In this document: positions 30,278-60,460 of the stretch, one piece after another | Position numbering within the stretch: the stretch's first letter is position 1 | Layout: every line of letters starts with the position of its first letter | Position numbers and translations under genes: made by a program | The notes under the pieces: generated by a model | Seen by the model: the letters and a program-made list of their open reading frames with translations, nothing else | Database searches by the model: none | What the model was told of the DNA's origin: nothing | Source: Eledone cirrhosa | Lineage: Eukaryota | DNA: 64,000 nucleotides | NCBI GenBank assembly: GCA_964016885.1 | Contig: OZ024741.1 | Coordinates: forward strand, 269,328,001-269,392,000 | Direction of reading: 5' to 3'

Positions 30278-30301
30278 TATATATATATATATATATATAT
30301 A

Positions 30302-30876
30302 TAGGAAAAAGTATGACCCCGACGGCAGAGCTCATATTTAATATAGAAAATCTTCTACAGGATAAGAACTGTTTCATTCATGAGAAATCATCAGGAAGCT
30401 GACTGTCCAAGTAATATCGTGGTATTTATATATTTTCTGGTGGTAGGAGAGGGTGGTGATTGGGATGAGTGGAGGTCATTGGTTGATGAGTTTAAAGAAA
30501 AGGGAATTCTTTAAAAGCTAATTCTTTAAAAGCTATATTTAGAGTAAATGTATTTACTCTTACACTAAATATATATAAAGCTATGTTTACTCTAAATATA
30601 GCTTTTAAAGAATTCCCTTTAAACCCATCAACCAATGACCAATTCTTTAAACCCATCAACCAATGACCTCCACCCATCCCAATCACCACCCTCTCCTACC
30701 ACCAGAAAAGATATAAATACCACCATATTACTTGGACAGTCCGCTTCCTGATGATTTCTCATGAATGAAACAGTTCTAGCCCTGTAGAAGCTTTTCTATA
30801 TTAAATATCTATACTCTGCTATGTATTGAGTACCTTACTTACTGTGGTTACTCCCGATTGAACCCGGGATAAACTT
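30302..30876. mobile_element. TA-flanked inverted insertion (family C) with an HHR in each arm
   Basis: 30333-30490 is inverted at about 30650-30807; AT-rich palindromic centre; tail 30808-30876. Confidence 0.85.
30743..30791 (+). ncRNA. Type I hammerhead ribozyme
   Basis: GCTTC-CTGATGA-tTTCtcatGAAt-GAAA-CAG-ttctagcc-CTG-TA/GAAGC; mirror copy at about 30351-30398 on minus. Confidence 0.85.
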
Positions 30877-33396: not shown

Positions 33397-33791
33397 CAAT
33401 ATGATGTAAAAGGATTTAATTAAATTTGCTGACATCTCTACTAATTAGAAATGAGAAAATTATCAAACAATTGACAGAATCAGTTGTTGTTGTTGGTGGT
33501 GGTGGTGTGTATGGGGGTAGTAGTGGTGGTATTGGTAGTGGTGGAGGTATTCTGAATAAGGCGCTAAAGGTGTGAAGGAAACATCATCAGCTCTTAAAGA
33601 ATATATATATATATATATATATAGTATTAAGGATACTATTTATGGTTATGTATACACTAAAACCTTTTATAGTTATATATATATTAAACCCTAAATAGTG
33701 AAAGACAGTAATTTATTACTATCTTATTACCAGTAAGATAAATAGCTCAATGTAATAACATCAGTTGTTTTACAGAGCAGTTATATATAAG

Positions 33792-34170
33792 TTATATGAA
33801 TCAAAGTTCTGTTTAAACCATTTATTCGCTTACAATTGGTTCTTCCAAACCGAGGTTTGGAGTCTTCGGAGCAATTTTTCAGTGATTTTTTAACATACTT
33901 GACCTCCTTTTCAACACAAGAGACATACAGAAACATATCTATATATATTGACTTTAATCTTTGAATGTAAATTGCCATGCTAAAATATTATAATGGATGT
34001 CAACCCACTGTGCATCAATATATACATATGTTTCTGTATGTCTCTTGTGTTGAAAAGGAGGTCATGTATGTAAACAATCATTGAAAAATTGCTCCGAAGA
34101 CTCCAAACCTCGGTTTGGAAGAAACAATTGTAAGCGAATAAATGATTTAAACAGAACTTTGATTCATGTA

Positions 34171-34172
<2 letters not shown>
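33792..34172. mobile_element. TA-flanked inverted insertion with variant HHR
   Basis: Arms about 33792-33945 and 34020-34171; HHR 34089-34137: TTGCT-CCGAAGA-TCCAAAC/GTTTGGA-GAAA-CAATTG-TA/AGCGA. Confidence 0.82.
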
Positions 34173-34210
<38 letters not shown>

Positions 34211-34212
<2 letters not shown>

Positions 34213-34695
34213 CGGAGGAGTTGTGGTAAGGAACCAGATGGACCATAACGCACCAGAGTACTCAACACTTATGGTAGTAGAGTGGGTAATAGGAGAAAGT
34301 ATGACCCCAGGATCCGAATCTCTCCTTGGTGTCGAAGTCCTGGTTGTCACGGTATCTATCATAGAAAAAAGTTCTCCATCTTAGTCTTTTCGCAAAAAGG
34401 TCGGTTTTTTGCGTGAGCATCCGAAGGTAAAGTTTTCTTGGTGGAATTGGGATGTTCTTGGTGGAGAAGTCGATATTGTGTTTTCGCATGGTGCGGGTAA
34501 AGAAACTTGAGCTGGATGGAAAAGTCAGGATATGGCGTGGTAGGATCGTAAAGTGCTCTACAACTGGGGTAGGAGCTAGATAACGGAGGAGTTGTGGTAA
34601 GGAATCAGATGAACCATAACGCACCAGAGTACTCAATACTCAGGGTAGTAGAGTGGGTAATAGGAGAAAGTATGACCCCGGGGTCATACTTTCTC
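34211..34695 (-). mobile_element. PLE 5'-end tandem insertion (family D) including the ORF N-terminus
   Basis: Direct repeat 34212-34308/34582-34679; MRKHNIDFSTKNIPIPPRKLYLRMLTQKTDLFAKRLRWRTFFY resembles PLE N-termini; 16-bp fold-back at 34680-34695. Confidence 0.8.
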
Positions 34696-34949
34696 ATATA
34701 TATATATATATATATAGTAATAATAATAAATTTGAAGACTTACTTACTTACTTATTTTGATAGCGAACGTTTCCACGAACCAAAGTATCGTCTTCCTGTC
34801 TTCCTCCGGTTGCAACGTTTTTTGAAATATCCACTTCTGCGTTTACAGATTGACTTTGTTAGTTTCAGAAGATCCCGTTAAGGGTGAAAGCAGCGATTCT
34901 TTGCTTAAACTTTAATCTGTTATTTTAATAAATATATATATATATATAT

Positions 34950-35377
34950 ATAGTTATATAGTAAGGTGTATTATTGGTTGTCATACGGTCCAATAAACTT
35001 TTGTTAGCAATATTAAGTTCTCCACGCTTTTGTATATCTCCAGTTCCATTTATGGGAACAGGTAGATGATGTAAGGGGGCGTATTTGTATCAAAATAAAG
35101 ATCCGAAGGCATGGTATAAATTTCCAATCATTTTAATCACGACACATGTTTCACCTGATGAGATCAGTGATAATCGATCATGACCACACGATCGATCTAT
35201 CTCTTATTGAAACATGTGTCGTGATTAAAATGATTGGAAATTTATACCATGCATTCGGATCTTTATTTTGATACAAATACTCCGCCTTACATCATCTAGC
35301 TGTTGCCATAAATGGAACTGGAGATATACAAAAGCGTGGAGAACTTAATATTGGTAACAAAAGTTTATTGGACCGTT
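34950..35377. mobile_element. TA-flanked inverted insertion with HHR
   Basis: Arms 34985-35153 and 35208-35376; HHR 35151-35224: TCAC-CTGATGA...GAAA-CATGTG-TC/GTGA. Confidence 0.85.
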
Positions 35378-60244: not shown

Positions 60245-60460
60245 AAGTTAAATAAAAAGTCAAATGTTTAAAATTTAGCTTCGTTTATTACTGCTATATA
60301 TATTTCAGTGACAGCCATCTTCGGCTGTGACCTCTTCAGGCAGTTTGAATTAGTATGGTATAGACAAGTACATATGTTGTTGAGGTGTATAATATTGTCA
60401 ATACTCTGACATGCCCAGTTCCTGGTTGGGTTGTTATTTCACTGAGGAACTGGAATCATA
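60239..60460 (-). mobile_element. Family E fragment with HHR (60291-60343)
   Basis: Reverse complement of about 45990-46210. Confidence 0.88.

Follow-up and report, generated by a model that had tools for sequence, protein, structure and literature searches.

Penelope-like elements (PLEs) of the Hydra clade are marked by an RWK motif, a DKT motif, a CxCX5C linker, CxxC and CxH motifs and, at the C-terminus, a GIY-YIG endonuclease (PMC8557442; statements taken from this and the other papers cited here refer to their accessible portions). The element described here resembles them in its RWK-like motif, DKT, CxCX5C, CxxC, CxH and C-terminal GIY-YIG, in carrying a hammerhead ribozyme and lying in (TA)n, and in forming tailed partial tandems that include an inverted, 5'-truncated copy; it differs in its U3-A8 hammerhead core with a long stem II, its tail of ~80 nt rather than 30–40 nt and its unit of ~3.1 kb. 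In the accessible text of that paper the function of the hammerhead is called unclear, and no 5' ends are mapped to the cut. PLE hammerheads, including that of Schistosoma Cercyon, are known as type I ribozymes in the pLTR with a U3-A8 core, a published variant in these elements, and the element agrees with them in these points (PMC4209133); cutting of precursor RNA was proposed there, and evidence in vivo was stated to be absent. In contrast to those hammerheads, the stem III of the element is a full 5-bp hairpin, so the monomer could fold.

Two further systems are instructive. Poseidon of Anolis carolinensis, studied in vitro (PMC11167929), is like the element in that both target strands are nicked and extended, two internal reverse transcriptase (RT) start sites define the tail, and a dimer is predicted; ribozyme cleavage was dispensable in vitro, uncleaved RNA was the main substrate and, in the portion accessible, no RNA-seq end fell at the cut, whereas the element has genomic ends there, as a minor class. 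R2 elements with an HDV-like ribozyme (PMC3774820) have genomic 5' junctions that mark the ribozyme cut and carry non-templated bases, as the element does, but ribozyme and element class are different, and the R2 cut is the normal 5' end while that of the element is a minor one. The Hydra clade, the U3-A8 core, fold-backs and ribozyme-marked junctions in R2 are thus already known. In the literature covered, which left most subscription papers and the supplements of PMC8557442 and PMC11167929 outside, there was no report mapping PLE 5' ends to a hammerhead cut, and the accessible part of bioRxiv 10.64898/2026.07.22.740005 contains nothing on cut sites.

The element family and its hammerhead

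The host, Eledone cirrhosa, has a genome of ~3.0 Gb, and the window analysed is a 64-kb stretch of it. We number the element so that the first G of GGGGTC is +1 and the C that precedes it in full copies is -1; the word +1..+25 has 7,621 exact copies in the genome, and long copies show the ~3.1 kb unit. The predicted protein, read from ORF pieces of three copies (L311, L304 and L307), contains RT motifs (QFDIES, YRDDG) followed by VIY...YIG, and this single-ORF layout, RT and then a C-terminal GIY-YIG endonuclease, is the one by which the Hydra clade is recognized. It also has RLRWR (RWR instead of RWK), SDKTG (DKT for DKG) and FGFNTY, while GxKF/Y is not kept; the CxCX5C linker (CNCPDRSTC) and the endonuclease CxxC (CNLC) and CxH (CKH) are all present in copy L304. 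A CCHH motif is not evident by eye in the ORF pieces. Relatives about 700 amino acids long were found at E 1e-129; Pfam scans of 11 ORF pieces returned no informative family, and the 20 stretches of copies looked at held no intact ORF. By its motifs the element is placed among the Hydra-type PLEs. Its target is (TA)n, in most of 91 copies as well as at the insertion described below, and copies end at two fixed sites, ~+98..103 and +16..20, both in (TA)n, the pattern to be expected if the RT begins at two sites and is primed from both strands, as in the accessible account of Poseidon (PMC11167929).

Upstream of +1, full copies have stem I followed by TTGANAA and a long stem II, then GAAA, stem III of 5 bp and GTC, and the copy strand folds into a complete hammerhead of type I, its core surrounded by three stems of which stem I is open (z -2.2 for L301 and -2.3 for L440). 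The predicted cut is GUC/G, exactly before +1. An earlier note on this DNA had postulated a full hammerhead upstream of GGGGTC, and in full copies it is indeed complete, with the predicted cut where the note had placed it. The check proposed there, a search for CUGANGA, would have failed wrongly because the core is UUGANAA; CTGANGA occurs many times in the window, from which the note had thought it absent, and it is missing only from the element family. TTGANAA is found in most of 46 copies together with GAAAC and GTC, and the canonical C3-G8 is absent; core position 7 varies (C/A/G/T) and the other core positions mostly hold. In a diverged subfamily (105 matches) three stem II pairs are altered on both sides relative to the other subfamily. 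Compensatory stem II change between the two subfamilies amounts to 20 cells, against 9.4 when shuffled (three events counted), and 95% of the cells of the hammerhead stems are paired in this comparison; covariation of the stems within one subfamily gave no signal. An Rfam scan of the 64-kb window returned, among the best 150 of 303 matches, solely microsatellite-driven miRNA matches. The possibility of an HDV-like ribozyme was given up when the hammerhead fold came to light.

Other hammerhead-like motifs occur in the window. Near 60339 (minus strand) and at 46110–46190 (plus strand) CTGAAGA precedes a hairpin and GAAA, which makes up a second such motif, belonging to another family, and at 30330–30860 an inverted pair with a canonical-looking CTGATGA...GAAAC on both arms adjoins a relative of the element (30301–30334).

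Anatomy of the insertion at 34211–34695

The insertion, its flanks and two relatives in the window are as follows.

34174..34210, no strand: left flank, (TA)n target
34211..34308, minus strand: segment 2, element +1..+98, the part of the pLTR past the predicted cut; its 3' end is the distal RT start site of the family and abuts (TA)n
34309..34311, minus strand: tandem-joint insert of 3 nt; the base beside GGGG is T, not the C(-1) of the element
34312..34679, minus strand: segment 1, element +1..+368, 5' UTR and ORF N-terminus, ATG at 34489
34680..34695, plus strand: inverted arm, element +1..+16; its end is near the proximal start site of the family (+16..+20) and abuts (TA)n
34696..34716, no strand: right flank, (TA)n target
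30301..30334, minus strand: relative with a short arm, element -14..+20
46266..46447, minus strand: relative of the common kind; the fold-back turns at ~-38/-40, in stem II, and stem III and the cut site are intact

Together the three segments (+98 to +1, +368 to +1 and, in inverted orientation, +16 to +1) make up one insertion, bounded by (TA)n at both ends, and each of them starts with GGGGTC, at the predicted hammerhead cut. GGGGTCATAC begins on the minus strand at 34679 and again at 34308, and 34679/34680 is the centre of a palindrome whose arm is perfect over 16 bp, just as the earlier note had described; GCCGTC-GGGG, which it had reported in the two relatives, lies at 46371–46362 and 30326–30317, both on the minus strand. 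The 5' UTR and PLE-type N-terminus that it had recognized are also present: the ORF of segment 1 begins at 34489 (element +191) with MRKHNIDFSTKNIPIP...RLRWRTFF. Comparison with 29 relatives shows segment 1 to be element +1..+368, the relatives continuing differently beyond that point, and the tandem segments are identical at 92 of 98 positions. Non-LTR retrozymes are non-coding tandem arrays of 150–400 nt units with a whole hammerhead in each; this class was rejected for the locus, as its segments lack the ribozyme and one extends into the ORF.

The two joints differ in what they can tell. Because base -1 is C, the CG at the fold-back centre admits a second reading, as a microhomology of 2 nt, so the blunt fold-back by itself proves little, and the join with 'no overlap' proposed earlier is unreadable from it. 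At the tandem joint 3 nt (34311–34309) match neither flanking segment; the segments do start at GGGGTC, as had been claimed, but this boundary is not clean. Since the base before GGGG is T rather than C(-1), segment 2 begins exactly at +1, and a non-templated A added to the cDNA is likely part of the insert. The tandem joint is therefore the better witness of the two, with a T before GGGG like that at many joints where the cDNA has gained an A. The pattern is not due to chance: the word +1..+25 exists in 7,621 exact copies, and ends at +1 on both arms recur genome-wide.

On the two sides of the insertion, at 33782–34181 and 34985–35376, lie duplications in inverted orientation, 86% and 90% alike, which belong to other repeat families and have (TA)n at their borders; these are likely head-to-head insertions of other PLE families.

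A minor 5' end at the predicted cut and a main end upstream

Fold-backs were counted from complete lists of exact matches read by eye, since the automated junction caller over-extends some arms through microhomology. In the whole genome 31 of 62 fold-backs with a spacer of 0–19 nt have both arms at the predicted cut (+1/-1), and, of the remaining arm pairs that lack microhomology, none is found at more than 2 loci in these lists. At spacer 0–4 the fraction is 24 of 36, the remaining 12 being of a GTC microhomology type (two matches of this list are on small contigs and could be duplicates of placed loci), and at spacer 5–19 it is 7 of 26 (+1/+1). The 24 joints comprise 5 blunt ones (34211–34695 included), 6 with a single A/T, 4 with AT, TT or AAT, 4 with a single C/G and 5 mixed. 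A/T-bearing inserts, for which the C(-1) of the element cannot account, are found in 22 of the 31. Joints short of the G run are present at 13 loci, of which two are +3/+3, one is +4/+4 and 8 have one arm at +1, and in sister subfamilies 10 of 28 fold-backs are clearly at the cut on both arms and 2 are unclear. Extension of the spacer to 24 nt adds a large group (146 of 208 fold-backs at 20–24 nt) that, among 50 listed, is mostly microhomology at the natural palindrome and stem III; such hot spots within 24 nt outnumber the cut joints.

The signal is weaker when arms are taken singly: 75 end at +1 against 23 at +3, 23 at -2 and 34 at -5, an enrichment of only 2–3 fold (6 of 30 inspected +1 matches were indel variants, in a check that covered the +1 set). 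A first single-arm pattern with 406 matches had been set aside, swamped by five-G variants. With the other arm at -40, ~20 of 48 are at +1 compared with 7 at -5 and 9 at -3, a modest rise. The cut-end class makes up ~1–3% of copies (75 filtered matches versus 7,621).

Most copies end elsewhere. Among 90 loci taken in genome order, an unbiased set, 60 of 101 arms end at -44..-35, with a mode at -41, and none at +1; both arms reach -40 in 1,166 fold-backs. The cut is thus a minor, exact end and the main end lies 41 nt upstream, so that the spike of 5' ends predicted at the GUC site exists as a sharp both-arm peak, though not as the principal end. Arms ending at -41 have a G in 12 of 15 cases where the genome has T, ~5 of these 12 being explicable by the partner arm or a templated insert. 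Extra Gs at the 5' ends of L1 and SVA have been ascribed to copying of the cap (accessible part of PMC3287187), and the end peak at -41 together with the extra Gs makes it likely that the template of most copies is a capped RNA with its start at -41, within stem II, and no UUGANAA core; a stop of the RT in the inner hairpin is another possible cause of these ends. A transcript beginning there, downstream of the core, could not cut itself in cis. In the diverged subfamily (L432–L443, compared with L301) TTAGT at the -41 start is retained despite changed surroundings. We take this TTAGT to resemble an initiator motif.

The recurrent start at +1 in a small minority of copies likely records hammerhead activity in living cells, as judged from these genomic ends. 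For 34211–34695 we consider it probable (roughly 0.72) that three segments start at the cut because the template had already cleaved itself there, and that it was likely copied three times. A self-cleaved template, as the earlier note had suggested, is the best reading in view of the full hammerhead upstream of GGGGTC, the right cut position and the sharp peak of 5' ends, with the correction that the cut is a minor end. An RT pausing on uncleaved RNA, at the base of stem III, whose first position is -2, or past the G run, would mimic a cut; the 5-bp hairpin directly upstream of +1, the low single-arm enrichment and the raised numbers of ends at +2..+4 are all in keeping with this. It is nevertheless unlikely, since pausing would affect every cDNA on its own and yield mostly +1/-40 pairs, whereas joints with both arms at +1 are as common as these (31 versus ~20), and ends with A/T inserts are at +1 and not at -1 (25 versus 2 without microhomology in automated calls on 91 matches, in which some arms are over-extended). 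Microhomology joins, or later loss of a palindrome centre, would require no RNA end, and the blunt CG centre at 34679/34680 is open to that interpretation. Microhomology does drive most short fold-backs, including the 12 GTC joints, and the 5 blunt centres are indistinguishable from its products, but of the other upstream palindromes of 2 nt, -4/-3 has 0 joints and -6/-5 has 1, 22 joints at +1 have A/T inserts and no homology, the tandem joint of 34211–34695 has T at -1 and again no homology, and centre loss would not select one base in several subfamilies; for the cut-end class this explanation is largely refuted, and we rate it slightly below the pause.

Probable repeated copying of one RNA

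If the arms were independent, 0.2–0.9 joints with both ends at +1 would be expected at spacer ≤6 (an estimate that extrapolates the short-spacer -40/-40 count from 50 of the 1,166 loci), and 24 are seen at spacer ≤4. Ends so far above independence make it likely that one RNA was copied repeatedly rather than a second one recruited. Three-segment insertions keep one kind of end, at +1 in 34211–34695, L409 and L021 (the tandem joint of the last is placeable only within -2..+2) and near -40 in L002, L007, L011 and L024, and in long fold-backs the arms share the subfamily type in 12 of 13 cases versus 28% expected, which could likewise be caused by a period of activity or by gene conversion.

The earlier note had the cDNA jump to a second RNA. 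Such a jump to another cleaved RNA, for instance where cleavage of a single tandem read-through transcript has yielded both +1 RNAs and a dimeric RT keeps them together, would also produce concordant ends if the two RNAs came from one precursor, and insertions with mixed ends (L143, L004 and L417) show that two RNAs can meet; it takes a smaller share of the probability given above for a cleaved template and is in itself rather unlikely. The 6 differences in 98 sites between segments 1 and 2 seem to favour it, but all six are rare variants among 287 other copies and are divided three and three, as expected from decay after insertion, and all three segments carry one minority marker (9 of 59 classified arms). 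Given the concordant ends, re-use of one RNA fits best. A circular template, with the 5'-OH end at +1 ligated to the +368 end and copied round more than once, would suit a tandem joint that connects +368 with +1, and circles have been proposed for PLEs (in the accessible part of PMC4209133); it is very improbable here, as the second pass halts at +1 instead of continuing, the joint has 3 extra nt, and tandem joints elsewhere land at many places. Least probable of all is an assembly artefact: the palindrome does lie beside microsatellites, and no independent record bridged the joints (contigs of 4 runs from one study, uninformative either way), but the arms end at the fixed sites of the family, the tandem segments differ at 6 sites, and dozens of loci have the same geometry.

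Several further joints were noted. In L004 (near 1501), in L417 (near 1504) and at G000:C3:230315263, +1 is fused directly to a few bases of the -41 start, as if a cDNA had run off a cleaved end before jumping to a capped RNA at its 5' end. In L001, L007, L011, L024 and G000:C2:123893782 the landing points of tandem jumps are +366..+372; a landing hot spot near +370 (4 of 13 in a selected set) was not retained, the genome-wide counts of 3 versus 1 and 0 being too few. Short insertions of the family in threefold tandem occur at L418 1478–1918 and G000:C2:371398046–371401001.

On the reading of a self-cleaved template, we infer the following course for 34211–34695. The endonuclease would nick both strands of (TA)n, one nick priming at element +98 and the other at +16. 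The first cDNA would run off the cleaved 5' end, gain extra bases, jump to +368, most likely on the same RNA, run off the end again and form a head-to-head joint with the short cDNA. The whole ribozyme would be present in read-through transcripts only, and the -41 capped transcripts would feed most copies. A wider model, which we put forward tentatively and rate somewhat below even odds, is that the PLE transcript starts inside its own hammerhead, so that the ribozyme fires only on read-through RNA, that cleaved RNAs are real templates in the germ line, and that one RNA may be copied two or three times per insertion, which would explain tandem and inverted PLE structures without a second RNA.

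Whether PLE hammerheads cut in vivo, and for what purpose, is an open question in the accessible parts of PMC8557442, PMC11167929 and PMC4209133, and it is this question that a base-exact pile of 5' ends addresses. The pile at the predicted cut is indirect genomic evidence that these hammerheads did cut, as a side route and not the main one, and 34211–34695 is a three-segment case of the cut-end footprint. The concordance of ends within one insertion leads to a testable proposal for the origin of tandem and inverted copies of PLEs.
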